Shown piece by piece: positions 1,999-26,897 of a stretch of DNA of 33,175 nucleotides. The notes under the pieces were generated by a model. That model did no database searches. It was not told the DNA's origin and saw only the letters and a list, made by a program, of their open reading frames with translations. The position numbers and the translations under genes are program-made. The first letter of the stretch is position 1. Every line of letters starts with the position of its first letter. This stretch comes from Candidatus Acidiferrales bacterium (GTDB lineage: Bacteria > Acidobacteriota > Terriglobia > Acidiferrales > UBA7541): the NCBI GenBank assembly GCA_036513735.1, contig DATBYL010000308.1, positions 1 through 33,175 of the forward strand, given 5' to 3'.

Positions 1999-3087
1999 AT
2001 GTTCAAGTGCCGAATTATGGTGATGGCTGCGATCACCGGAACGCTGCTGCTCGCGGGAATTCTCGCCGCGCAGACGCCTTCACCCGGCGGCACGTGGCAA
2101 TTTACCGTCTCAGGTGATTCGCGAAATTGTGGCGACGTCGTGATGCCCGCAATTGCGGCGGACGTCGTGAAGCATCACCCTTCATTTTATTGGCATCTGG
2201 GCGATTTTCGCGCCACGTACACCTTCGACGAAGATATTCTGGCGCAGCCCGCGCACATGCTGCGGCCGCCGACAATCTACGAATACTTGCACAACGAGTG
2301 GCAAGACTTTCTCGATAATCAAATCGCCTCGTTTGGCGACCTGCCCGTCTTCCTTGGAATTGGAAATCACGAAGCCATCGCGCCGAAAACTCGCGAGGAA
2401 TTTATCGCGCAATTCGCGGATTGGCTGGACAGTCCGGTTCTCCGCGCGCAACGGCTGCGCGATAATCCGCGCGATCATCAATTGCATATTTATTATCACT
2501 GGCGCGAGCGCAACATCGATTTCATCAACATGGATAACGCCACCGATGACCAATTTGACGCCGCGCAGATGGAATGGTTTGAAGACGTTCTGGCGCGGGA
2601 CGTGGCCGATTCGGGTATCGCAACCGTTGTCGTGGGAATGCACGAGGCGCTGCCCGACAGTATTTCCGAAGATCACAGCATGAGCCAATCGCCGACCGGC
2701 GTGGAAAGCGGGCGGCGCGTTTACCAGGAATTGTTGCGGGCGGAGAAAAGCGGCCACAAGCGCGTCTACATTCTGGCCAGCCATTCGCATTTTTACATGG
2801 CGAATATTTTCAACACGGAATACGTTCACCAGCATGGAGGCGTTTTGCCCGGATGGATTATCGGAACCGCCGGCGCGTTTCGATATCCTCTGCCGCCGAA
2901 CTCGAGCGCCGCAACCGCCGCGCAAACCAACGTGTACGGATATCTTTTGGCGAATGTAAAAGCCGACGGCTCGATTGATTTTCAATTTCAGAAATTGGAA
3001 GAAGATAGCGTGCCCGCCGCCGTCGTAAGGCGCTACGAGCCGAAATTCATTCACTGGTGCTGGACGCAGAATACCGACGCGAGATAA
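1999..3087 (+). CDS. Secreted calcineurin-like metallophosphoesterase
   Basis: 362-aa ORF with an N-terminal hydrophobic signal (AAITGTLLLAGILAAQ). It has phosphoesterase motifs GDSRNCGD, HLGDF, GIGNHE, GMHE and SHSH. A GGAG lies 9 nt upstream of the ATG. Confidence 0.8.
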   Translation: MFKCRIMVMAAITGTLLLAGILAAQTPSPGGTWQFTVSGDSRNCGDVVMPAIAADVVKHHPSFYWHLGDFRATYTFDEDILAQPAHMLRPPTIYEYLHNEWQDFLDNQIASFGDLPVFLGIGNHEAIAPKTREEFIAQFADWLDSPVLRAQRLRDNPRDHQLHIYYHWRERNIDFINMDNATDDQFDAAQMEWFEDVLARDVADSGIATVVVGMHEALPDSISEDHSMSQSPTGVESGRRVYQELLRAEKSGHKRVYILASHSHFYMANIFNTEYVHQHGGVLPGWIIGTAGAFRYPLPPNSSAATAAQTNVYGYLLANVKADGSIDFQFQKLEEDSVPAAVVRRYEPKFIHWCWTQNTDAR

Positions 3088-12169: not shown

Positions 12170-13261
12170 CTAATCGCCACTGGCACTCTTGGCCGCCGTA
12201 TATCCCTGCCGCGCATACACAACAAACTTCACCTTCTTGCCTTTCTGATTCGTCACCACCATCGGCGTGCCGTCGGCGTTCACCAACTCAACTTTAATCT
12301 TGTGATATTTTCCGTCCTGCGAAGTCGGCGCGTATCCCAGGCTGTACTGATTGCGAAGACTTGCCGCAATCGTACGCATGATTTCCGGAATCTGTCCGTC
12401 AAATTCCGGCGTCCAGGCCTGGCCTCCGGTTAGATCCGCGAAAACTTTCATCTGCTGTTGCGCCACTTGGCTTCGGATATTTCCGATACTGCTGCCGCCT
12501 GAAATAGCCGCGTTGGTGTCCACTATAAACTGGCTCGTTCCGATCGTATAAATTCCCACATCTGACTGGCGCACCAGCTTCATCGTGTTGTCGTACGTAA
12601 GTTTGCTGAATGTGTCGTAGCCCGACGCAACAACAAGGATTGTTTTCTTTCCTTTCACTTCCGCAAGCCGGTCAATCGTTTCACCAAGCGCATCGTACAG
12701 GCACGACTCGCTGTAAAGCGGCACCACCATACGATTAATTTCCTGCATTATTTCTCGGGGGTCGTGTGTGAAATCCACATCCACGCGCGTCTTCAAATCG
12801 AAATCTTCCAGCGCAATCCAGTCATCCTTTTTCAACTGGTTCAGAAAATTGGCCGCCCAGTATTTGCTCACCTGCGCGTAATAATTTCCCGTATAAAGGT
12901 GCGCTCTAAATTCGATCAGCAGCACGATTGTAATCGGCGCTTCGCCGGCTCCCGTAAAATTCGTAATAATTTGCGGCTTTCCGTCTTCCAGAATCCGGAA
13001 ATTTTCTTTCTTCAGCCCGGGCAAAAAATTCCCGTCGCCGTCCGTCACCACCGCGTCCACGTTCACAAGTTGCGCGTTCACGCTGATTTGATAATTTCCC
13101 TGCGGCGCTGGCTGGCCCTGCTGCTGCGTTGGCGGCGGTGGAGCTTGCTGACCCTGCGCCTGCGCGGGAATCGCCGCCGCCGCGTGCATTCCATGCGGCG
13201 AAACAATAATGATAAGCGTCAGGACGATCAGTATCGCGGACTGCAAAATAACTCGCTTCAT
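12170..13261 (-). CDS. Secreted VWA-domain protein with the acidobacterial-type N-terminal domain
   Basis: 363 aa with a signal peptide and a P/Q-rich linker (AQGQQAPPPPTQQQGQPAPQG). This is followed by VNAQLVNVDAVVTDGDGNFLPGLKKENFRILEDGKPQIITNF. That stretch matches my memory of the VWFA-related Acidobacterial domain. A VWA-like core (ITIVLLIE..., ILVVASGYD) follows. Confidence 0.75.
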   Translation of the reverse strand: MKRVILQSAILIVLTLIIIVSPHGMHAAAAIPAQAQGQQAPPPPTQQQGQPAPQGNYQISVNAQLVNVDAVVTDGDGNFLPGLKKENFRILEDGKPQIITNFTGAGEAPITIVLLIEFRAHLYTGNYYAQVSKYWAANFLNQLKKDDWIALEDFDLKTRVDVDFTHDPREIMQEINRMVVPLYSESCLYDALGETIDRLAEVKGKKTILVVASGYDTFSKLTYDNTMKLVRQSDVGIYTIGTSQFIVDTNAAISGGSSIGNIRSQVAQQQMKVFADLTGGQAWTPEFDGQIPEIMRTIAASLRNQYSLGYAPTSQDGKYHKIKVELVNADGTPMVVTNQKGKKVKFVVYARQGYTAAKSASGD

Positions 13262-13429
13262 ATTTGTGCCTCGTTTATGAATTCAATGCTCCCACGAATT
13301 GCGGACTTGTTCAATTCTCTAACGGCTTTTCCGAAACACACGTCCGACTCGTCCCCGGCCGTTCCCAACCAGCATGATAATATGATTCGCGTGCTCACGA
13401 AGAGGTTTCCTAGCCGGAGGCTACGACGA

Positions 13430-14878
13430 ATGCTTCGCCGTCCCTTTTTGCCGATTTGCATAGCGGTCTTCTTCAGTCTCGCGTTGACCAGCGCCGCCTC
13501 CGCGCAAACCACTCCCGGAATTCCGTCCCCGGCCAGCGCGCCGAACATGGGCACGCTGCCTCAGGAATCCATCGCGTGGCTCGAAGGACTCATCCGCATT
13601 AACACTACAAATCCTCCGGGAAATGAACTCGCCGCGGCAAATTACATCGCCGCCATTTTGGAAAAAGAAGGCATTCCGCACGAAGTGATTGAAATTACTC
13701 CCGGCCGCGGAATTGTCATCGGCCGTCTGAACGCTTCCGTGATGCCCGACGCTTCGCGCAGTCTTCTTCTCCTCGCGCATTTGGATGTCGTCGGCGTCAC
13801 TCGTGAAAAATGGACTGTCGATCCTTTCGCCGCCGTCACGCAAAACGGTTATCTCTACGGCCGCGGAACCATTGACGACAAGAGTATGGTCATCGCGAAT
13901 CTCGCGGCCATCATTGCGCTGAAACGAAACGCAGTTCCGCTTCAGCGCGATGTAATTTTTCTTGCCGACGATGACGAGGAGCAAGGCGGCGACGCCAGCA
14001 TCAAAGCCGTCATCGCAAAACATTGGGACAAAATCGCATCCGGATTCGCCATCAACGAAGAAGGCCGCGTAATCACAAAAAATGGCAAGCCGCTTTACGT
14101 CGGCATTCAGACCAGCGAAAAAGTTTCCATGAATGTCACCGTGATTTGCACCGGCACTTCCGGCCACGCCTCCATGCCGCGTCCCGATAACGCCGTCGTC
14201 CATTTGTCACAGGCCATCGCAAAAATCGGCGATTACGAGACTCCCATCAAATTTATTCCGGAAACAGAACGCTTTTTCGAGCAGCTCGCCAGGGTCGAAG
14301 ATGACGAGACCGCCAAATGGATTCGCGCGCTCGAACAACCGTCGCGTCAAAGTCTCGCCGTGAAGCGCGTTTCTGAAATGAATCCCGCGTGGAATTCCAT
14401 GATGCGCGATACCATCGCGCCCACGATGCTGGAAGCCGGCGTGCGCTTGAACGTAATTCCGTCCGAAGCCCGCGCCAATTTAAATGTTCGCCTGCTTCCC
14501 GGCGACTCGATCAATGACGTGCTCGCCGATCTGAAAAAAGTCGTGAACGATCCGCAAATTCGTTTTGAAGTTGTTCAGAACGGAGGGACGCCTTCGCCGC
14601 CGTCGTCGCTCGAATCGCCGCTATACAAAACGATTCAGCTGGCAAGCGAACAGGAATTTCCCGGCATCGTCACGATGCCTTACATGAGCACCGGCGCCAC
14701 CGATTCCGCGCAGCTCCGCCTACACAACGTGCAAGCCTACGGCCTGCTTCCCTTTCCGCTCGCTGAAGAAGACGTACTGCGCATGCACGCCGATGACGAA
14801 CGCATTCCGCTCGATTCGTTTCGCAAGGGCGTCGAATTTCTCTATCGCATCGTCAATGATTTCGTAGCGCGAAGATAA
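13430..14878 (+). CDS. Secreted M20-family metallopeptidase (ArgE/DapE/CPG2-like)
   Basis: The track ORF starts at 12764 and overlaps the VWA gene. I prefer the ATG at 13430, which follows CCGGAGG with a 9-nt spacer. The signal peptide is MLRRPFLPICIAVFFSLALTSAASA. Motifs are LLLAHLDVV, YGRGTIDDK, DDDEEQGG and TGTSGHASMP. Confidence 0.85.
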   Translation: MLRRPFLPICIAVFFSLALTSAASAQTTPGIPSPASAPNMGTLPQESIAWLEGLIRINTTNPPGNELAAANYIAAILEKEGIPHEVIEITPGRGIVIGRLNASVMPDASRSLLLLAHLDVVGVTREKWTVDPFAAVTQNGYLYGRGTIDDKSMVIANLAAIIALKRNAVPLQRDVIFLADDDEEQGGDASIKAVIAKHWDKIASGFAINEEGRVITKNGKPLYVGIQTSEKVSMNVTVICTGTSGHASMPRPDNAVVHLSQAIAKIGDYETPIKFIPETERFFEQLARVEDDETAKWIRALEQPSRQSLAVKRVSEMNPAWNSMMRDTIAPTMLEAGVRLNVIPSEARANLNVRLLPGDSINDVLADLKKVVNDPQIRFEVVQNGGTPSPPSSLESPLYKTIQLASEQEFPGIVTMPYMSTGATDSAQLRLHNVQAYGLLPFPLAEEDVLRMHADDERIPLDSFRKGVEFLYRIVNDFVARR

Positions 14879-17344: not shown

Positions 17345-19495
17345 CTAATCCAATTTCTTCCGCGCGAAAACAAACAACGAAGCCGCCAACGCCACAAAAA
17401 TAAATACGCCAGTCCAGGAATTATCAGCAAGCCCGCCAAGAATCTTCGGCCCAAATTTAAAATAGTCAACCCGCATCCAACCTTTATCTTCCAAAAGCTT
17501 AAAAATAATCGCCAGCAATCCGAAAATTCCTCCGGCCGCGATCAATCCGCTCGCATAAAGCGAACCCGGACTCACTTCGCTGTCCGATCCCTCTGCTTTT
17601 TCCTTCCCACGCTCAGCAAGCCAACGCACCAATCCCCCGGCAAATATCGCCATCGTCGTAGCGACGCTTAAATACGATCCCACCGCAAACGGCAGCGATC
17701 GTATCCCCAGCAATTCCACCGCAATCACCAGAAAAACTCCCAGCAGCACGAGACGCCACGGCAATCGCTGATTCAAAATTCCGTTAATCACCGTCGCCAT
17801 CAGCCGCGCCTGCGGAGCCGCCGCCTGATCGCTTCCAATTCCCTGCACCCATTGCACGTCAATCTTCTGTACAGCGGGATCGTAAAGATATTTACCATCC
17901 GGAAGTGACGTCGCTCCAATCGAATTCACCAGCACATAAGTTTTTCCGTCGTACACATAATTTTGCTGCTCGATACTCACACCCGCGGAAATTTCCTGAA
18001 TGTTGAAAGGAATATCCACTGGATTATATTTCGCCAATCCTTTATTCATCGCAATCAGCGTCAATCCAATCGCCACCGTCGAAACGCTCACTCCAATAAT
18101 CAATCCAATCTGCTGCCAGTACGGAGTAGCTCCCACCAAATGCCCGGTCTTCAAATCCTGTGAAGTAGCTCCGGCAATTGCCGACGCGATACAAACCACT
18201 CCACCGATCGTCAGCGCCAGCACCGCGTAAGGCGGCTGCTTCCATCCGACCACCAGAAACACCGCGCACGTCGCCATCAAAGTTGCAATTGTCATTCCGC
18301 TAATCGGATTGGAACTGTTCCCGATTAATCCGCTGATGCGCGACGCCACCGTCACAAACAAAAATCCAAACGTCACCACAATCAGCGCCGCAAAAATATT
18401 TGCGTACCACGTCGTCTGCGCGCCCGGTATCGGCCGGAACGTCAACATCATCCACGTCAGCACAATTATTCCCAGCGATCCGATCAATAAAAATTTGATC
18501 GGTAAATCGCGCTCAGTGCGCTCGCCGCCCGCTACCAGACCGCGCTCTTTGCGAACGTCCTTCAGACCTTGAGTCAATGCCGAAACAATCGTCGGAATTG
18601 TTTTCACCAACGTAATTAATCCCGCCGTCGCCACCGCCCCAGCGCCCATTGGACGTATGTAGCTCGACCACAATTGGTCCGGCGTCATCTGCGGAATCGG
18701 AATCGTGCTCGGATAGAGCGCCGCGTTCGGCGCCAACCCTCCGAAAAATTTAATCGCGGGCATCAACACAAACCACGAAAAAACTCCGCCCGCAAATAAT
18801 GTTCCCGCCACTTTCGGCCCGATGATGTATCCCACTCCCAAATATTCCGAAGTAATCGCCGCGCGCAATGACGCTCCCGGAAACCATCTCGGCCGATATT
18901 CCGGCTGCTGCGGCCACGCGCCCACGCTGTTCATCAAAAATGTGTAAACGCCGCCAAGCCCCAATCCCCAGAACACTCGGCTCGCAAACGATCCACCGCG
19001 CTCGCCCGCGACCAACACGTCCGCGCACGCCGTGCCCTCAGGAAACGAAAGCGCGCCGTGTTCCTTCACAATCAACTGCCTGCGCAACGGAATCATGAAA
19101 AGTACGCCTAGCCATCCGCCCAGCAGCGCCAGCATAAAAATTCGCGAATACTCCAGCGGAAATCCCAGGAAAATCAGCGCAGGCAAAGTAAAAATAACTC
19201 CCGCCGCCACGGACTCACCCGCCGACCCCACCGTCTGCACAATATTATTTTCTAAAATTGTCGCGCGCCCGAATGCCCGCAAAATACTAATGCTCAGCAC
19301 CGCAATCGGAATCGAAGCCGAAACCGTAAGCCCCGCGCGCAATCCCACGTAAACCGACACCGCGCCAAATAAAATTCCGAACAGCGCGCCCAGCAATACC
19401 GCGCGCAAACTGAACTCCGCCATTACAGTTCCCGCATCCACGTACGGACGAAAGTCCGCGGGTGGTGCGGTCGAACTCCAGGGCTTCGTAGCCAC
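17345..19495 (-). CDS. OPT-family oligopeptide transporter
   Basis: 716 aa with many TM segments. The N-terminus FRPYVDAGTVMAEFSLRAVLLGALFGILFGAVSVYVGLRAGLTVSASIPIAVLS is typical of bacterial OPT proteins. It has a GTG start preceded by GGGAGG. Confidence 0.88.
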   Translation of the reverse strand: MATKPWSSTAPPADFRPYVDAGTVMAEFSLRAVLLGALFGILFGAVSVYVGLRAGLTVSASIPIAVLSISILRAFGRATILENNIVQTVGSAGESVAAGVIFTLPALIFLGFPLEYSRIFMLALLGGWLGVLFMIPLRRQLIVKEHGALSFPEGTACADVLVAGERGGSFASRVFWGLGLGGVYTFLMNSVGAWPQQPEYRPRWFPGASLRAAITSEYLGVGYIIGPKVAGTLFAGGVFSWFVLMPAIKFFGGLAPNAALYPSTIPIPQMTPDQLWSSYIRPMGAGAVATAGLITLVKTIPTIVSALTQGLKDVRKERGLVAGGERTERDLPIKFLLIGSLGIIVLTWMMLTFRPIPGAQTTWYANIFAALIVVTFGFLFVTVASRISGLIGNSSNPISGMTIATLMATCAVFLVVGWKQPPYAVLALTIGGVVCIASAIAGATSQDLKTGHLVGATPYWQQIGLIIGVSVSTVAIGLTLIAMNKGLAKYNPVDIPFNIQEISAGVSIEQQNYVYDGKTYVLVNSIGATSLPDGKYLYDPAVQKIDVQWVQGIGSDQAAAPQARLMATVINGILNQRLPWRLVLLGVFLVIAVELLGIRSLPFAVGSYLSVATTMAIFAGGLVRWLAERGKEKAEGSDSEVSPGSLYASGLIAAGGIFGLLAIIFKLLEDKGWMRVDYFKFGPKILGGLADNSWTGVFIFVALAASLFVFARKKLD

Positions 19496-19908
19496 GCATC
19501 GCCTCCCAAGTTCCGGAAATTATCTGTATTTTCGGAAAACTATTAGCGTTCAGCTTGCCGTTGAATTTAATTCGCCGAGACCGGGCCGTTTTGGCCCACC
19601 AAGTCCCTGAGACTATCCATGCGCGCATCGGATTGCAACATAAAGCCTCACGCGCCGCCGTTATCATTCACCTCCGCCGTCCTTCGTAACGGGCGTACTG
19701 GAACCAAATTACCCCCGTCGCAGTACTTGACTTAATTGCCAAGGGGCGTTAACGTCCCGGTCACTTTATCTAGCCCCTACAGGTATCTCGCCGCTGACGC
19801 GGGCTAAATCGTTCGTCGCACGGAAACACGCGTGACGCGCCAGTGTCCGAACGCGACGGTGGTTAATTGGGATTACATAGAAGCCGCTTTCTTAGATCGG
19901 AGCTGATC

Positions 19909-21909
19909 ATGCGAACGACTGCGCGAATGACGACGCGAATCTGGAACAGGTTTGCCCTTTTAATTCTTCTTTTGGCCGCGGCATCTCCGCTCGGCGTCAC
20001 TCCCGCACGAGCCTCCGCTCCGGATTGGCCTCCCATCGCTCCCGACGAGCTTGCCATGAAAGATAATCCCGCCAGCCCCGGCTCGCTCGCCATGATTCTT
20101 TTCCGCGAAGAAATTGTGAACAGCAAGGATTCATCCGAAACGTATTACTACCGCATCAAGATTTTCACCGAAGAAGGCAAGAAGCACGCCGACGTCGAAA
20201 TTCCATTCATCAAGGGTCTCTCCGACGTCAAAGATATCCGCGCGCGCACAATTCATCCCGACGGCAAAGTAATTGATTTCACGGGCCAGCCCATCGACAA
20301 GCTGGTCGTAAAGTCCGGCGACGCGAAAATTCTCGCGAAAACTTTCACCATGCCCGACGTTACTCCCGGCAGCATCGTCGAATATCGCTACAGAATTCAG
20401 CGCGACTCCGATCTTCTCTACAACATTCTGTGGCGCATCGAGGAACATATTTATACCAAGCGCGCTCACTTTGTTTTCGAGCCTTATCGCGGCGATAACG
20501 CCCCCAGCCTTCTCTGGCGAATCGCCCATCTGGATTCCGGTCTCGCTCCGCAAAAGCAAAAAGACGGCTCGTACTCGCTCGAGGTTCACGACATTCCCGG
20601 CGTTCCCGATGAAGACTACATGCTTCCCGAAGACGAAATCCGCGGCCACATCGAGTTCATTTACAGCGACGAGGAGCATCCGAAGGACGCGAAACTATAT
20701 TGGGATAACGTGGCGAAAGCCCGATTCCAGCATCAGGACGAATTCGTCGGCAAGCGCGGCTCCATTCGCGATCTAGCCAACAAGCTCGTCACCAATGACG
20801 ATTCGCCGGAGCAAAAACTCCGCAAACTTTATGCCCGCGCTCAGCAAATTCACAATCTGGATTTCGACCCCGAAAAAACTTCTCAGGAAGCGAAGCGCGA
20901 TAAAACCAAAGACAACAATAATGTTGACGACGTCATGAAGCACGGCGCCGGCGATTCCGCCGACATCGATTATTTTTTCCTCGCGCTCGCTCAGGCCGCC
21001 GGCTTCGATTCCGGCATCGTCTGGATCGCTCCTAGAAACGAGCGCCGATTCGAGCCAAACGCTCAGGACCGCCGAATGCTTGACGATTTCATCGTCTGGG
21101 CTCACGCCGGTGACAAAGATTATTTCCTCGATCCCGGCGCCGCTCTTTGCCCGTTCGGCACGTTGCCGTGGTACGAAACCAGCATCACCGGACTTCGTCC
21201 CACAAAACAGGGCGCGGTCTTCATGAAAGTTCCGGTTGCCGACGGTGCCGATTCCGCCGTCGCTCGCCGCGCTCAACTCAAGCTCGACGAATCCGATGGC
21301 TCCATGTCCGGCACTCTCTACGTCACCTACACCGGCCAAAACGCGCTCAGTCGCCGCAGAGATGCCCTCAACGAAGACGAGACCGGCAAAAATAAAATTA
21401 TCACCGACGAAGTGAAATCCTGGTTTCCTGCCAACGCAAAATTCGATCTCACCACCGTCACCGGATGGGACAAGCCCGATTCGCCGCTCCAGGTCGAAGG
21501 CAAAATTACTTTGCCCAGCGTCGCCGAATCCGTCGGCCGCCGCGTTCTGCTACCGCTCGGCCTATATGAAGCTGGCCGCCCGCAAATATTCCAAACCGCC
21601 AGCCGCAAGCAGGATATTTATTTTCACTTTCCGTACGCGGAACAAGACGACATCACTCTTCAGGTGCCGCAAGGCTGGCACGCCGAATCTCTTCCTGCGC
21701 CGGCTGTAGTCAATCCCGGTGGCTTGCTTCGCTACGAAATTTCCGCGAAGCAGGAAGGTGACGCTCTTCACGTGCAGCGAAAACTTATCGTCGGCGGCAT
21801 TCTCTATCCCGCCGATTCCTACGGCGCGGTTCGCAAATTTTTCGGCAGCGCAAAAGAGGGCGACGAAACTCAACTCGTCCTGCAAACCGCTCCACCGGCA
21901 AGCAAATGA
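19909..21909 (+). CDS. Secreted DUF3857 / transglutaminase-fold / DUF3858-like protein, paralog 1 (catalytic Cys and His replaced)
   Basis: The track ORF begins at a TTG at 19867. I prefer the ATG at 19909 (GGAG 7 nt upstream). The signal peptide is ...LLILLLAAASPLGVTPARA|SAPDW. The core region KHGAGDSADIDYFFLALAQAAGF aligns with the Cys motif of paralog 3 and has Ser in place of Cys. YFLDPG retains the Asp. Confidence 0.75.
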   Translation: MRTTARMTTRIWNRFALLILLLAAASPLGVTPARASAPDWPPIAPDELAMKDNPASPGSLAMILFREEIVNSKDSSETYYYRIKIFTEEGKKHADVEIPFIKGLSDVKDIRARTIHPDGKVIDFTGQPIDKLVVKSGDAKILAKTFTMPDVTPGSIVEYRYRIQRDSDLLYNILWRIEEHIYTKRAHFVFEPYRGDNAPSLLWRIAHLDSGLAPQKQKDGSYSLEVHDIPGVPDEDYMLPEDEIRGHIEFIYSDEEHPKDAKLYWDNVAKARFQHQDEFVGKRGSIRDLANKLVTNDDSPEQKLRKLYARAQQIHNLDFDPEKTSQEAKRDKTKDNNNVDDVMKHGAGDSADIDYFFLALAQAAGFDSGIVWIAPRNERRFEPNAQDRRMLDDFIVWAHAGDKDYFLDPGAALCPFGTLPWYETSITGLRPTKQGAVFMKVPVADGADSAVARRAQLKLDESDGSMSGTLYVTYTGQNALSRRRDALNEDETGKNKIITDEVKSWFPANAKFDLTTVTGWDKPDSPLQVEGKITLPSVAESVGRRVLLPLGLYEAGRPQIFQTASRKQDIYFHFPYAEQDDITLQVPQGWHAESLPAPAVVNPGGLLRYEISAKQEGDALHVQRKLIVGGILYPADSYGAVRKFFGSAKEGDETQLVLQTAPPASK

Positions 21910-21935
21910 CGACTGACCGAATGGAGCACCCACAA

Positions 21936-23912
21936 ATGTTTTCTCGTCATCGTGCTACAGCAATCGCTCTTCTGTTATTCGCCGCCGCAGTCTTCGGCCC
22001 AGCCCCCGCTCGTGCTTCAGCCGACTGGCCCCCACTCGCTCCCGAAGATCTCTCCCTCAAAGACAATCCCGGCGAGCCGGGCGCTGCCGCCATGATTCTC
22101 TATCGCGAAGAAATCATCAACAATAAGGACTTCCACGATTTTTACTCCGAACATTTCTATCGCATCAAAATTTTCTCCGACGCCGGAAAAAAATACGCGG
22201 ATATCGAAATTCCCTCCGCCAAATTTTTCGGCGAAGTCCGTGACATCCACGGCAAAACAATTCATCCCGATGGCAAAGTCATCGAATTCGATGGAAAAGT
22301 TCTGGATAAATTAGTCGCCAAATCCGGTGACGTGAAAATTCAAGTAAAAACATTTTCCCTTCCCGACGTAACTCCCGGAAGCATCATCGAATACACCTAT
22401 AAAGTTTCGTTGCCCGCCCAATATCTAGCTCCTGCCGACTGGCCCGTGCAGGACGCCATCTATACTCGCCGCGCTCACTTTGTGTATCGCCCCTTCACCG
22501 GCGGCACCACGGCCACCCTCCTCTGGCGCTCGTCCCATCTGCCCGATATCAAGCCCCCTCATAAAGAAAGCGATGGCTCATGGGCAATGGACGTGGCCGA
22601 TGTTCCCGGCTTGCCTGAAGAAGATTTCATGTTGCCTCTGAACGAAGTTCGTGGCCGCATCGAGTTTTATTACACGCACGAAAACCATACCGGCGATACC
22701 AAGCAATATTGGGATAACGTCGCAAAGCAATGGGCCGACGAAAATGAAAAATTTATCGGCAAGCGCGGCTCCATCCGCGATCTCGCGAACCAGCTCACCG
22801 CTTCCGCCGATTCTCCGGAATCCAAGCTACGCAAGTTTTACGTCCGCGCACAGGCCGTCCATAATTTTGACTACGATCCCGAAAAAACGATTCAGGAAGC
22901 CGAGCGCGAAAAAGCCAAGAAGGACACGAACGTTGACGACGTCCTCAAGCGCGGCTCGGCAACCAAGCTCAACATCAATCAATTCTTCGTCGCCCTCGCT
23001 CAGGCCGCTGGATACGACGCCAGCGTCACCTGGGTTCGCGCGCGCACTCGTTCCTTCTTTCATCCCGAAATGCAGGATCGCTCCGAATTAAACGAAGCTC
23101 TCGTCTGGGTTCGTGCCGGTGACAAAGAATATTATTTGGATCCCGGAAATCCGTTTTGTCCTTTCGGCATGTTGCCGTGGTACGAAACTTTCACCACCAC
23201 CATGCGTCCCACCAAGCAGGGCGCCGTTTTCGCCGAAACTCCGCTGCCTCCATCGGACCAGTCCATCATTTCTCGCAACGCGCAATTCACTCTTGATCCC
23301 GATGGCTCCATCTCCGGCACATTCACCGTGCGTTTCACCGGTCAAACCGCCTTCGTTCGCCGCTTCGACGGCCGCAACGAAGACGAAACTGGCCGCAGGA
23401 AAATCATCTCCGACGAAATTAAAAATATGTTCCCCGGCAGCACAACTTTTGAACTCACTACCCTAACCGGCTGGGAGAAAAATGATGTTCCTCTCGAGGC
23501 CGTCGGCAAAGTCACCATGCCCAATATCGCCACCATCGCCGGCCGCCGCGTGCTGCTTCCCGTCACCGCTTTCACCGTTGGCACGCGACAGCGATTTGAC
23601 GCCACCAAGCGCACGCAGGACATTTATTTTGCCTACCCTTACACCAATGCCGACGACTTGATCATTAAATTGCCCGCCAATCTGCAAACGGCGACCCTTC
23701 CCAAACCAAGCGTCTACAATCTGGGCAGTGAATTTCACTATGAAATCGCCGCCAATCAGAAAGACGGCGCTCTGCACGTCGTACGAAAAATGAATGTGAA
23801 TGGCGTTCTCTATCCCGTGGATAACTACCGCGATATCCGCAGTTTTTACGTCATGGCCAAGTCAGGTGACGAGCAGCAGATAGTCTTGCAATCAGCGGGT
23901 TCCAGCAATTAG
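21936..23912 (+). CDS. Secreted DUF3857 / transglutaminase-fold / DUF3858-like protein, paralog 2 (catalytic Cys and His replaced)
   Basis: The track start is 21906, which overlaps the upstream stop as ATGA. The ATG at 21936 has a GGAG 9 nt upstream and gives MFSRHRATAIALLLFAAAVFGPAPARA|SADW. The protein is collinear with paralog 1 throughout. The core reads KRGSATKLNINQFFVALAQAAGY, with no Cys. Confidence 0.75.
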   Translation: MFSRHRATAIALLLFAAAVFGPAPARASADWPPLAPEDLSLKDNPGEPGAAAMILYREEIINNKDFHDFYSEHFYRIKIFSDAGKKYADIEIPSAKFFGEVRDIHGKTIHPDGKVIEFDGKVLDKLVAKSGDVKIQVKTFSLPDVTPGSIIEYTYKVSLPAQYLAPADWPVQDAIYTRRAHFVYRPFTGGTTATLLWRSSHLPDIKPPHKESDGSWAMDVADVPGLPEEDFMLPLNEVRGRIEFYYTHENHTGDTKQYWDNVAKQWADENEKFIGKRGSIRDLANQLTASADSPESKLRKFYVRAQAVHNFDYDPEKTIQEAEREKAKKDTNVDDVLKRGSATKLNINQFFVALAQAAGYDASVTWVRARTRSFFHPEMQDRSELNEALVWVRAGDKEYYLDPGNPFCPFGMLPWYETFTTTMRPTKQGAVFAETPLPPSDQSIISRNAQFTLDPDGSISGTFTVRFTGQTAFVRRFDGRNEDETGRRKIISDEIKNMFPGSTTFELTTLTGWEKNDVPLEAVGKVTMPNIATIAGRRVLLPVTAFTVGTRQRFDATKRTQDIYFAYPYTNADDLIIKLPANLQTATLPKPSVYNLGSEFHYEIAANQKDGALHVVRKMNVNGVLYPVDNYRDIRSFYVMAKSGDEQQIVLQSAGSSN

Positions 23913-23946
23913 AAATTAATTTTCACTCGGTCAAAGGTGAATATCG

Positions 23947-25956
23947 ATGCGCATCAACTCAAATCTCAATTTCTCTCTCGTGCGTTTTCTCCCGCGCGCA
24001 GTCAGCGCCGCATTTCTTCTCGCATTCATCGCATCGCTAGCCTCCGCTCCCGCGCGCGCCGACGTCCCCTCTTGGCTCACCGCCGTCGCGCATGACACTT
24101 ATCCCGGCGTGCCCGCGGAAACCAACGCCATCGTTCTCTATGACGAGCAGGAAACCACCGTTCAGCCAAATGGCGATATCGAAACTCTCTATCGCCGCGC
24201 GTATTTAATTCTCCGCCCCGACGGCCGCGCCTACGGCCGCGTCGCGGTTCCCTTCGATAACGAAACTAAAATCACCTGGATGAAAGCGTGGTGCCTTCCG
24301 AAGGATGGCAAGCCCTACGAGCTAAAAGAAAAAGACGCCGTCGAAGTCGGCGATTTTGAATCTTTCTATTCCGATGACCGCAGCAAAGTTTTGGACATTC
24401 CCGCCGCAACTCCCGGAAATGTTGTCGGCTATGAATATCGCCAGAAGAAACGTCCGTTTTTCCTTCAGGACGAATGGATGATTCAAGACAACATTCCCGT
24501 TCTCCGTTCGCGATTCACTCTGAACTTGCCGGCAGGTTGGGAATTCAGCACGAAATGGATTCACTATCCCGAACAAAAACCAACTTCGCAAAACGCTACG
24601 CAAATCGTCTGGGCCGTCGATCACATTCCGGGAATTAAAAAAGAACCATCCATGCCCACTTTTCATTCCGTCGTAGCGCGAATGGGCGTCACCTATTTCC
24701 CCACCGGCGCGCAAACCAGGGCCTTCGGTCCCACAAATTGGGAACAAATCGGCGTCTGGTACAACAATCTCGCCGCCACTTCGCTCCAATCCAGCCCCGA
24801 AATTCAGCAAAAAGTAAAAGAGCTTACCGCCAACACGAAAACTTGGGAAGAAAAAGTCGGCGTCCTCGCCCACTACGCGCAAAGCCAGATCCGCTACGTC
24901 GATATCGAAATCGGAATCGGCGGATTTCAGCCCCACCCCGCGGGCGATATTTATCGCCACCAGTATGGCGATTGTAAGGACAAAGCCACTCTCCTCAGCG
25001 CCATGCTTCATGAAGCCGGAGTCGAATCCTACCTCACGCTCGCTCAGGTTTTTCGCGGAATCGTCGCGCCCGAATTTGCATCGGCCATCACTTTCAATCA
25101 CGCCATTCTCGCCATCCGCGTTCCCGATGGGCAGGACGTGAAAGATCTCCACTCCGTCATCGACGTTCCCAAGCTCGGCAAACTTTTATTTTTCGATCCC
25201 ACTTCCAGCTACACGCCGTTCGGATTCATTCCCACTTACGAGCAGGATAATTACGTTCTCGTCGCCGCGCCGCAAGGCGGGGTCCTCGTAAATCTTCCGC
25301 TCAGCGCGCCGGACTTGAACCGCCTCGTGCGTTCCGCAAAACTCCAGCTCTTTCCTGACGGTTCTGTCACCGGCTCCGTCGAAGAAATGCGTTACGGCGC
25401 TCAAGCATCCGACGAGCGCGAAATCCTCCTTGGCACCGCCGGAGCCGATCGCGCCAAAATTCTCGAAACTTTTCTCTCCAACTTCCTGCGCGGCTTCCAT
25501 CTCACCAACGCTTCCACCATTGACCTCGACAAAGTCGGCGAACCGCTCGACGTCAAATATGGTTTCACCGCCGACCGCTACGCCAAATCCGCCGGCGATC
25601 TGCTCGTCGTTCGTCCGCGCGTCCTCGGTCAGAAATCCGACGACGTAGCCGAAGGCGATCCGCGAAAGTTTCCCGTCGAATTCGATTCCGCCTCCGTACA
25701 AACCGACGATTTTGAAATCACTTTGCCGCCCGGCTACTCCGTCGAAGACGTGCCGCCGCCCACCAAAGCCGAGTCCGAATTCGCCAGCTACACCAGTCAG
25801 GTCCAGGTGGACGGAAATAAAATCCGTTACACCCGCACCTACCAAATCAAACAAGTCCTCGTCCCGCTCGATAAACTCGACGAGCTAAAAAAATTCAATC
25901 GCCAGGTAGCCGCCGACGAGCGCTCGAGCGTAGTCCTGCATCACAGCGCGAATTAG
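23947..25956 (+). CDS. Secreted DUF3857 / transglutaminase-like / DUF3858-like protein, paralog 3 (intact Cys-His-Asp triad)
   Basis: 669 aa. AAGGTG lies 7 nt upstream of the ATG. The signal peptide is ...FIASLASAPARA|DVPSW. The transglutaminase-core motifs are HQYGDCKDKATLLSAMLHEAGV (Cys), TFNHAILAIRV (His) and LLFFDPTS (Asp). Confidence 0.8.
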   Translation: MRINSNLNFSLVRFLPRAVSAAFLLAFIASLASAPARADVPSWLTAVAHDTYPGVPAETNAIVLYDEQETTVQPNGDIETLYRRAYLILRPDGRAYGRVAVPFDNETKITWMKAWCLPKDGKPYELKEKDAVEVGDFESFYSDDRSKVLDIPAATPGNVVGYEYRQKKRPFFLQDEWMIQDNIPVLRSRFTLNLPAGWEFSTKWIHYPEQKPTSQNATQIVWAVDHIPGIKKEPSMPTFHSVVARMGVTYFPTGAQTRAFGPTNWEQIGVWYNNLAATSLQSSPEIQQKVKELTANTKTWEEKVGVLAHYAQSQIRYVDIEIGIGGFQPHPAGDIYRHQYGDCKDKATLLSAMLHEAGVESYLTLAQVFRGIVAPEFASAITFNHAILAIRVPDGQDVKDLHSVIDVPKLGKLLFFDPTSSYTPFGFIPTYEQDNYVLVAAPQGGVLVNLPLSAPDLNRLVRSAKLQLFPDGSVTGSVEEMRYGAQASDEREILLGTAGADRAKILETFLSNFLRGFHLTNASTIDLDKVGEPLDVKYGFTADRYAKSAGDLLVVRPRVLGQKSDDVAEGDPRKFPVEFDSASVQTDDFEITLPPGYSVEDVPPPTKAESEFASYTSQVQVDGNKIRYTRTYQIKQVLVPLDKLDELKKFNRQVAADERSSVVLHHSAN

Positions 25957-26090: not shown

Positions 26091-26897
26091 CTAAAAATAA
26101 TCCGCCTCCTCGCCCATCATCATATCCGCCGCCTTAAACTTCGCCTCAAATTTCCTCACTCCCACCTGCGTAAAAAATGAAATCTCCGTCGCATCCTTCG
26201 GAATCGAAGGAGTCCCATCCTTCATCCTCTGCGGAAACGCAAAAAAGTACCCGCGACTGTCCCGCGCGTCCACCCACATTCGTGTCTCGGCAATCCTCGC
26301 GTAAATTTTCCGCCCCGAAGGCTTCAACTCCAAATAAGTTTCCCGGCGCAAACTAGTCTCCTCCGTCGGCGGCAAAACGGTTTGCCCGGTCGGAATCATC
26401 ACCAGATCAATATTCTCCTCGTCGTTGATCAAATACCGCTGCGAAGCGAAATCCGTTCCCAACCCTTTCAACACCGCCTCGCGATAAAGCGCCCGACGCA
26501 AAGTCAGCGCCGAATTCCATCGCAAAGTAAAAGTCCCACTCGCACGATAAAGCTGCGCATCCGCTCCGCCCGGATCGCCCGCCTTCCCAATCTTCATCTG
26601 TTGAGCCGTCTCCGGCGAATCCCCATTCAAATAAGGCGAATAAGGAATCGTGATCTGCTTCGCCCACGGCGAATTATTCAAAATCCTGTCCACATCCTTC
26701 GCCGACCACTTCTCATAATCCGCATTCTTCCACGGCTCCGTAGCAAAAACGCAAACCGCCATCAGCAAGATCGCTCCCGCCGCCAAAATAATTCTTCGCC
26801 TCAAATTATTCCGATTGAAATCTTCGAGCTCAGAGGATTGAGACTTGAACAAGATCATCTCCCACGATTCAAACCTATGATGCACAAACATCCCCAC
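26091..26897 (-). CDS. Hypothetical exported or membrane-anchored protein
   Basis: 268-aa ORF. The start is uncertain (GTG at 26897, ATG at 26891, or the later MILFK). There is one N-terminal hydrophobic segment, RRRIILAAGAILLMAVCVFA, then WKNADYEKWSAKDVDRILNNSPWAKQ. I do not recognise a named family. The composition is protein-like, unlike the Arg-rich antisense ORF at 26382-26936. Confidence 0.6.
   Translation of the reverse strand: MGMFVHHRFESWEMILFKSQSSELEDFNRNNLRRRIILAAGAILLMAVCVFATEPWKNADYEKWSAKDVDRILNNSPWAKQITIPYSPYLNGDSPETAQQMKIGKAGDPGGADAQLYRASGTFTLRWNSALTLRRALYREAVLKGLGTDFASQRYLINDEENIDLVMIPTGQTVLPPTEETSLRRETYLELKPSGRKIYARIAETRMWVDARDSRGYFFAFPQRMKDGTPSIPKDATEISFFTQVGVRKFEAKFKAADMMMGEEADYF

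Follow-up and report, generated by a model that had tools for sequence, protein, structure and literature searches.

A transglutaminase-fold enzyme candidate encoded behind two dead paralogs in an Acidobacteriota genome, and a conserved pseudoenzyme-enzyme pairing in the DUF3857/DUF3858 family

The window analysed here is a stretch of 33,175 nucleotides (contig DATBYL010000308.1, assembly GCA_036513735.1) from a Candidatus Acidiferrales soil bacterium of the phylum Acidobacteriota, in which three tandem genes, P1, P2 and P3, encode paralogous proteins with a transglutaminase fold. We found that P3 retains a Cys-His-Asp triad and is the predicted catalytically competent member, and that P1 and P2 possess neither a nucleophile nor a general base nor a conserved substitute for them and are, by their residues, pseudoenzymes. 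This arrangement, one intact member preceded by two dead paralogs, is the one that the original prediction had read from the sequence, and the analysis supports it. The conserved unit in Acidobacteriota is a pseudoenzyme gene followed by an enzyme gene; only a subclade has the triplet, which in the window goes back to an additional, old duplication of the pseudoenzyme gene. We somewhat favour a reading in which the dead paralogs serve an exported thiol enzyme, whose substrates would be peptides or proteins, as partner subunits without catalysis of their own.

The three open reading frames (ORFs) lie on the + strand at the positions first proposed for them and encode proteins of ~667 residues: P1 at 19909..21909 (666 residues), P2 at 21906..23912 (668 residues, or 658 if the start is at 21936) and P3 at 23947..25956 (669 residues). 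The P1 and P2 products are the exported pseudoenzymes, P1 with the order DUF3857, dead transglutaminase-like core and DUF3858-like domain, and the P3 product is the putative exported catalytic member. The stop codon of P1 overlaps the ATG at 21906 as ATGA, an overlap of 4 nucleotides, and P2 and P3 are separated by 34 nucleotides. As first suggested, this same-strand, closely spaced arrangement probably represents a single operon.

The triad of P3 comprises C343 (24973-24975), H385 (25099-25101) and D417 (25195-25197), with a further invariant histidine at H330 (24934-24936). The vestigial triad of P1 is S350 (20956-20958), D393 (21085-21087) and D408 (21130-21132), and that of P2 is K354 (22965-22967), E397 (23094-23096) and D412 (23139-23141), the Asp alone being retained in both. 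A 238-sequence alignment and the register of secondary-structure elements in AlphaFold models both bear out these assignments, which were first made by eye. In the alignment all 118 listed P3-type homologs have Cys, His and Asp at the three columns; among the 117 P1/P2-type homologs none has Cys or His there, the Asp survives in nearly all, and the nucleophile column is free to hold G, S, K, N, A, T, P and other residues. In the models the first residue of the core helix is C343 in P3 (helix 343-356) and S350 in P1 (helix 350-363), the first residue of the following strand is H385 in P3 (strand 385-391) and D393 in P1, and the residue after the next strand is D417 in P3 (strand 411-416) and D408 in P1. 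P3 thus has the residue arrangement of clan CA, a Cys-His-Asp triad in which the Cys begins the core helix and the His and Asp lie on the strands after it, and P1 (S/D/D) and P2 (K/E/D) do not.

Across 177 enzymes C343, H385, H330 and S617 are 100% conserved. Across 188 unique pseudoenzymes no Cys, His or Ser is conserved above 68%, and on this count we rejected an alternative active site in P1 and P2; another conserved Cys or His there had been named as the observation that could overturn the original prediction, and none was found. The dead members differ from the enzyme in a further respect. The enzyme region that runs from IEIGIGGFQPHPAGD to YGDCKDKATLL is replaced in them by a conserved charged segment, EKTxQExKREKxKxNNNVEDVLKHG, which occupies the place of the enzyme's active-site entrance; in P1 the pseudoenzyme-specific motif is EKTSQEAKRDKTKDNNNVDDVMKHG, starting at residue 322.

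All three proteins share an N-terminal DUF3857 beta-sandwich, a transglutaminase/papain-like core and a C-terminal DUF3858-like domain. Of the DUF3857/Transglut_core/DUF3858 architecture originally proposed, DUF3857 stands by its hidden Markov model (HMM) score, with 55.2 bits in P1, 43.3 bits in P2 and 87.3 bits in P3 against a Pfam gathering cut-off of 24.6 bits (PF12969), and the other two domains fall short by score and hold by structure. Transglut_core (PF01841, cut-off 23 bits) lies just under threshold at 21.2, 20.9 and 20.4 bits in P1, P2 and P3, and most P3 orthologs at 69% identity or less have a precomputed PF01841 match. DUF3858 (PF12970, cut-off 27 bits) scores 17.9 bits in P1 and 18.7 bits in P2, the Pfam HMM search of P3 giving no match to it, and an NCBIfam search of the proteins gave no match. 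The labels DUF3858 and Transglut_core thus derive from structure and from orthologs rather than from the HMM scores of P1-P3, and the C-terminal domains appear DUF3858-like by modelled fold, not by Pfam model.

The AlphaFold models of P1 and P3 were built on 39- and 41-sequence alignments and have predicted local distance difference test (pLDDT) values of 88.0 and 88.2. The best structural match of both is PDB entry 3KD4 (E 2.6e-27 and 5.2e-31), with an alignment that covers ~628 columns, the full length, at a TM-score of 0.56 to 0.75 normalised to the target. The match to 3KD4 extends over the full length in each of the three proteins, and the possibility raised at the outset that the terminal domains might not be of the DUF3857 and DUF3858 types was not borne out. 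The next structural matches are the luminal domains of OST1/ribophorin I and the N-terminal beta-sandwich of M1 aminopeptidases. They are followed by the transglutaminase-like cysteine protease 3ISR from Cytophaga, matched in Foldseek at E 2e-5 by P3 and 1e-3 by P1, and by TG2 (8tr9), matched at E 9e-5 and 4e-4 by P3 and P1. In sequence searches of the PDB, by single sequence and by profile, 3KD4 is the sole match, and since no characterised enzyme is detectable by sequence, the chemistry could not be assigned from one.

Each of the three proteins begins with a predicted signal peptide ending in the PARA motif, and the N-termini quoted in the original prediction are all present: residues 1-35 in P1 (19909-20013; TPARA|SAPDWPP), up to A37 in P2 (22016; APARA|SADWPP) and residues 1-38 in P3 (23947-24060; APARA|DVPSW). 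In all three, basic residues and then a hydrophobic stretch lead to an A-R-A site, after which the mature end is conserved, and by a crude rule the same type of N-terminus is found in 215 of 235 homologs. No lipobox Cys and no recognisable C-terminal sorting signal is found in P1, P2 or P3. Both protein sizes of the family, a 648-residue DUF3857 protein and a 544-residue DUF3858 protein, occur in the outer-membrane-vesicle proteome of Tannerella (PMC10682907), which supports export of the family. These signals justify calling the proteins exported, as predicted; the stronger word secreted, which had been used for them, is not yet justified.

P1 and P2 are 53% identical over 637 residues, and P3 is 23-24% identical to P1 and P2, colinear end to end (E 7e-29 and 1e-29). 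The peptide matches first quoted between P1 and P2 all recur in the protein alignments; the description of the two as clearly recent paralogs does not survive. Their nucleotide identity is 63%, falling to 49% at third codon positions, the synonymous divergence (dS) is ~1.2, and in a distance tree their orthologs form separate clades, an indication that the duplication is old. Orthologs of P2 at 71-93% identity include P0058, P0047 and P0057. The identical run of 18 nucleotides that had been offered as evidence of duplication is indeed present at 21162-21179 and 23171-23188, with none expected in shuffles of the whole window, but a run of at least 18 nucleotides arises in 35% of codon-column shuffles of the P1/P2 codon alignment; with dS saturated, we rejected the run, being chance-expected, as a sign of recent duplication or gene conversion. 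A further P1/P2 run of 19 nucleotides lies at 20747.

Ratios of nonsynonymous to synonymous divergence (dN/dS) were obtained against L001, the closest reference genome (Terriglobia metagenome-assembled genome MFD06092.bin.2.82, with neighbouring genes 96-99% identical at the protein level), and against L165, which like two JGI contigs has the triplet in the same wider synteny. For P1 the ratio is 0.06 against L001 and 0.18 against L165; for P2 it is 0.14 against L165; for P3 it is 0.08 and 0.13, and for the rhomboid neighbour 0.03 and 0.16. Judged by these substitution patterns, P1 and P2 are under purifying selection and are not pseudogenes. In the 39-sequence pseudoenzyme alignment 37 columns are invariant.

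A scan of one genome per species gave 80 loci, all from Acidobacteriota and mostly labelled Terriglobia or Candidatus Acidiferrales. In 79 of these 80 reference loci a pseudoenzyme gene (psi) is followed directly, on the same strand, by a catalytic gene (CAT) with Cys, His and Asp. The three-gene order that had been expected is conserved as regards this pair and not as regards the triplet, two pseudoenzymes being present in only ~6 of the 80 (L002, L003, L004, L020, L056 and L068); the enzyme is single throughout, and only the pseudoenzyme is ever duplicated. A lack of synteny in relatives, which would have pointed to a strain-specific event, was not what we found, the arrangement being syntenic. 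From the psi stop codon to the codon for W43 of CAT the median distance is 79 nucleotides (n=71), which is shorter than the signal peptide and means that in most genomes psi and CAT overlap. In 71 of 71 loci the enzyme is the better conserved of the two, with a mean identity to the window protein of 49%, against 43.5% for the pseudoenzyme.

In L001 a single P1/P2 hybrid pseudoenzyme (L001:10004-11989) stands where the window has P1 and P2 (19909-23912). Its residues ~1-560 are 94-100% identical to P1 and its last ~70 are 90-93% identical to P2, which implies loss of one copy, putatively by unequal recombination. With P1 and P2 63% identical in nucleotide sequence, an artefact of assembly is improbable. 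In a simple distance tree L003 (7820-13916) and L004 (7948-13907) appear to have the P2-like gene first and the P1-like gene beside the enzyme, the reverse of the window order, and L020, L056 and L068 look like independent pseudoenzyme duplications.

Pairs of this kind are also found outside Acidobacteriota, in a second phylum, Bacteroidota. 3KD4 is BDI_1141 of Parabacteroides distasonis, annotated as a putative protease, and it is the only solved structure and the founding structure of DUF3857/DUF3858. It has YGTPLE where P3 has YGDCKD (a weak PDB sequence alignment) and is itself dead, with Pro replacing the Cys, YLSAS replacing (F/L)DPT and the His absent. On Parabacteroides gut contigs a paralog of 652 residues lies 14 nucleotides upstream of the 3KD4-type gene; it has GVCKD, FNHCV and LDPT and a Transglut_core score of 39 bits, and the 3KD4-type protein lacks all three triad residues. 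A second Parabacteroides species (83% identity) retains the pair. Our metagenome scan returned only Parabacteroides, at 83-100% identity, and says little on breadth within Bacteroidota; a homolog search with a 3KD4 fragment returned fragments only.

The Parabacteroides pair (L089:5557-9112; L081:3-3115) has menF/D/B/C/E upstream and a GH84 N-acetylglucosaminidase with CBM32 downstream. In one Logan assembly an extra C splits the 3KD4-type gene into two ORFs (L081:2390-2420, with ATGGCGACTGACC for the expected ATGGCGATGACC), which could be a sequencing error or a strain polymorphism; contigs L082-L084 begin near the same point of the gene.

The Cytophagales species Chondrinema litorale carries on plasmid NZ_CP111050.1 (L166:2918-6830) a dead member (A/Y/D) followed, after 23 nucleotides, by a C/H/E member, whose third triad residue is Glu and not Asp. 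At ~2 kb downstream of this pair is a gene with the annotation Pycsar effector family protein. Three sampled single-copy relatives, from Burkholderia, Aureibacter and Paraburkholderia, are all C/H/D.

Profiles of these groups were compared by their hhalign scores. The Acidobacteriota and Parabacteroides enzymes score 204 against each other, a value at which the enzymes look orthologous across phyla. The Acidobacteriota dead members score 72 against the Parabacteroides enzyme and 35 against the Parabacteroides dead member, and the latter scores 61 against the Acidobacteriota enzyme, to whose profile it is thus closer. The Chondrinema dead member scores 177 and 184 against the Acidobacteriota dead and enzyme profiles, respectively, and is equidistant from both. 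A repeated origin of the pseudoenzymes across phyla is plausible on these profile scores.

The case for a partnership of psi and CAT is indirect and is built on gene overlap, on co-variation of distances and on the occurrence of pseudoenzymes beside enzymes. Pairwise distances of psi and CAT correlate with r 0.89, and with the distances of the neighbouring OPT-family transporter (OPT) taken into account the partial r is 0.82, a value reached in 0 of 999 permutations; the psi-OPT partial r given CAT is only 0.13. In Acidobacteriota, Parabacteroides and Chondrinema pseudoenzymes were met only beside an enzyme, with the exception of locus L011, and the three sampled singletons are all catalytic in their residues. 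Transcription of P1, P2 and P3 probably starts at a common putative promoter near 19727-19755, and their translation is probably coupled. Once exported through Sec, the dead paralogs would partner P3, contributing substrate recognition, a scaffold or allosteric control, with P1 and P2 as alternative or additional partners. P3 would carry out a thiol-dependent attack on the amide bond of a peptide or protein, resulting in proteolysis, deamidation or transamidation, and the likeliest role of the set would be peptide or protein processing outside the cytoplasm.

Several observations weigh against a partnership of this kind. Locus L011 (9956-11971) has OPT and a pseudoenzyme and no enzyme gene, and tblastn finds no remnant of one at the locus. 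Rate shifts common to both genes, or their joint transfer as linked genes, could produce the mirror-tree signal in place of physical contact, and OPT, the control in the partial correlation, is a slow and imperfect proxy for the species tree. As to the chemistry, P3 itself lies just under the Pfam cut-off for Transglut_core (20.4 against 23 bits), and sequence searches detect no characterised enzyme, so that P3 may be a protease, an amidase or a transamidase. A link to peptide uptake is weakened in its turn, since OPT adjacency is confined to one order-level clade of Acidobacteriota with broadly conserved upstream synteny, and no OPT gene lies beside the Bacteroidota pairs.

The most serious alternative, which we regard as distinctly less probable than a partnership, is that the dead paralogs act alone, as exported binders, substrate decoys or inhibitors of P3 that are co-expressed for the same process. 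The pseudoenzymes keep the Asp and, after it, the segment DPGxxxCPFGxLPWYET, which fits a retained binding cleft, and both the unaccompanied pseudoenzyme of L011 and a pseudoenzyme copy number of one or two beside an always single enzyme are in keeping with independent action. The overlapping genes, on the other hand, suggest matched production, and co-variation of psi and CAT distances as strong as that observed is more typical of interacting partners, although the data do not separate independent binders from subunits cleanly.

P1 and P2 might instead still be enzymes, catalysing by another chemistry in which the retained Asp takes part together with other residues, a proposal that we consider improbable. 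The Asp is almost invariant in the Acidobacteriota pseudoenzymes, in which many Arg, Trp and Asp residues are also invariant, but the conservation ceiling of 68% for Cys, His and Ser given above and a nucleophile column that is free to vary are difficult to reconcile with catalysis, and the Parabacteroides pseudoenzyme has lost the Asp too. Marginally less credible again is a role for P3 as a true transglutaminase that cross-links or trims P1 and P2 through their Gln/Lys-rich loop (EKTxQExKREKxK), building an envelope or extracellular layer. This Lys/Gln/Glu-rich loop is conserved and pseudoenzyme-specific, is modelled less confidently (pLDDT ~65 for residues 321-330) and takes the position of the active-site entrance in the enzyme, and the fold also matches TG2; the idea is nevertheless speculation from a motif, the Bacteroidota pseudoenzymes are without the same loop, and no repeat or structural-protein features are present. 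Decay of P1 and P2 as functionless duplicates, which the lost catalytic residues, the faster evolution of the pseudoenzymes and the merging of P1 and P2 into one gene in the closest genome might seem to favour, is effectively refuted by the selection data, namely dN/dS values of 0.06-0.18 that are near those of the enzyme and the rhomboid neighbour, together with full-length intact ORFs in 79 of 80 genomes despite deep divergence, retained signal peptides and the 37 invariant columns.

Extending the partner-subunit reading beyond the window, we tentatively propose that the DUF3857/DUF3858 family may generally form exported enzyme-pseudoenzyme heteromers, a pairing that would have arisen or been retained repeatedly (in Acidobacteriota, Bacteroidales and Cytophagales) and in which psi copy number (one, two or a fused hybrid) might tune substrate range. 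3KD4 would then be a dead subunit, its "putative protease" label attached to the wrong partner.

3KD4 resembles P1 and P3 in being their best full-length structural match, in its domain order, in being exported and in its tandem arrangement with a paralog. It differs in being shorter (527 residues), in lying downstream rather than upstream of its catalytic partner and in having the men genes and the GH84 N-acetylglucosaminidase, not an OPT transporter, as neighbours; nor do the profile scores tie it specifically to the Acidobacteriota pseudoenzymes, against which it scores 35, as compared with 61 against the enzyme profile. P3, for its part, has Cys, His and Asp in the canonical order of the transglutaminase-like cysteine proteases of clan CA, such as 3ISR from Cytophaga hutchinsonii, LapG, PNGase and TG2. 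Unlike P3, the characterised clan CA enzymes have neither flanking DUF3857 and DUF3858 domains nor a paired dead paralog, and none of them is detectable from P3 by sequence, even by profile.

Partnerships of an enzyme and a paralogous pseudoenzyme are known from the AdoMetDC/prozyme and deoxyhypusine synthase pairs of trypanosomatids, which are cytosolic eukaryotic heteromers with demonstrated activation. Like these pairs, P1-P3 have a dead paralog kept under selection beside a catalytic relative, and their linkage and distance co-variation fit that model of partnership; unlike the trypanosomatid pairs, they are exported bacterial proteins whose pairing appears to have arisen or been rearranged more than once. 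The transglutaminase-like fold is likewise already known. In the literature on DUF3857, DUF3858 and 3KD4 we found incidental mentions only, among them the listing of 3KD4 with transglutaminase-like cysteine proteases (PMC4866520) and a DUF3857 gene that adjoins lolA in Xanthomonas (PMC6341742). These searches returned no description of a pairing of enzyme and dead paralog in the DUF3857/DUF3858 family, and they bear out the earlier statement that the family has no experimentally defined function.

Upstream of P1, at 19727..19755 on the + strand, lies a promoter-like block with TTGACT (19727-19732), a 17-nucleotide spacer and TAACGT (19750-19755), whose function as a promoter is a prediction. 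It lies ~155 nucleotides from P1. When the OPT/psi intergenic region of the window is aligned with those of L001-L007, genomes whose psi proteins are 52-90% identical, no other block proves to be conserved. A consensus promoter scan missed the block, the -10 element of which matches the consensus at only 3 of 6 positions. Shine-Dalgarno-like GGAG and GGTG precede the starts at 19909 and 23947, respectively. The OPT/P1 intergenic region spans 413 nucleotides, and the block would leave a leader of ~150 nucleotides. An RNA element in this 413-nucleotide region was considered and rejected, the Rfam and tRNA searches having given no match anywhere in the window, and terminator-like sites are no commoner than in shuffles. 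An operator shared between the divergent OPT and psi genes was also rejected, the recurrent 9-mers of the intergenic region being subclade-limited and missing from the window.

The OPT-family oligopeptide transporter gene (17345..19495, - strand; Pfam OPT E 3e-84) is divergent from P1 and forms part of the context rather than being a shown component of the set. No other neighbour keeps its place next to psi-CAT in Acidobacteriota; OPT is present at 58 of 80 loci and directly adjacent and divergent in at least 41 of 77, and this adjacency links the module only weakly to peptide uptake. The window belongs to the core chromosome. On the upstream side it encodes GlgC, enolase, iPGM, a 2-hydroxyacid dehydrogenase, an M20 peptidase, pyruvate kinase, a rhomboid protein and OPT, and downstream of P3 it encodes DUF3224, an ECF sigma factor, a Zn phospholipase C, DUF308 and Nramp. 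Function could not be drawn from neighbours, none of which is conserved across phyla (men genes and GH84 in Parabacteroides, unrelated plasmid genes in Chondrinema), and anti-phage defence or a phage origin was rejected after PADLOC and PHROGs searches without a match.

Three sizeable ORFs of the window, at 26091-26897 (-), 1999-3087 (+) and 12170-13261 (-), have no Pfam match. The first, of 268 residues, is convergent with P3 and has a match only in L001, and the last, of 363 residues, has matches in 24 of 80 loci. The 704-residue M20 peptidase ORF at 12764-14878 (+) is probably over-extended at its 5' end, as indicated by a Pfam match that starts at residue 335, by its overlap with 12170-13261 and by an L001 counterpart of 537 residues. 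Between 10000 and 28000 the GC skew of the + strand is persistently negative, reaching -0.32 at 26-27 kb, and it becomes positive after ~30 kb.

Soil Acidobacteriota and gut Bacteroidota commonly encode DUF3857/DUF3858 proteins, to which no function has been assigned. The occurrence of a predicted live enzyme with a maintained dead paralog indicates that the two should be studied as a pair, to be expressed, assayed and deleted together, and it changes how the 3KD4 structure should be read. Parabacteroides distasonis provides a genetically tractable test system for a module otherwise found mostly in uncultured Acidobacteriota. If the partnership holds, it would place a bacterial, extracytoplasmic case beside the enzyme-pseudoenzyme partnerships that have mostly been described in eukaryotes, and the fact that the pseudoenzyme alone has been duplicated and fused repeatedly could shed light on the evolution of such partners.

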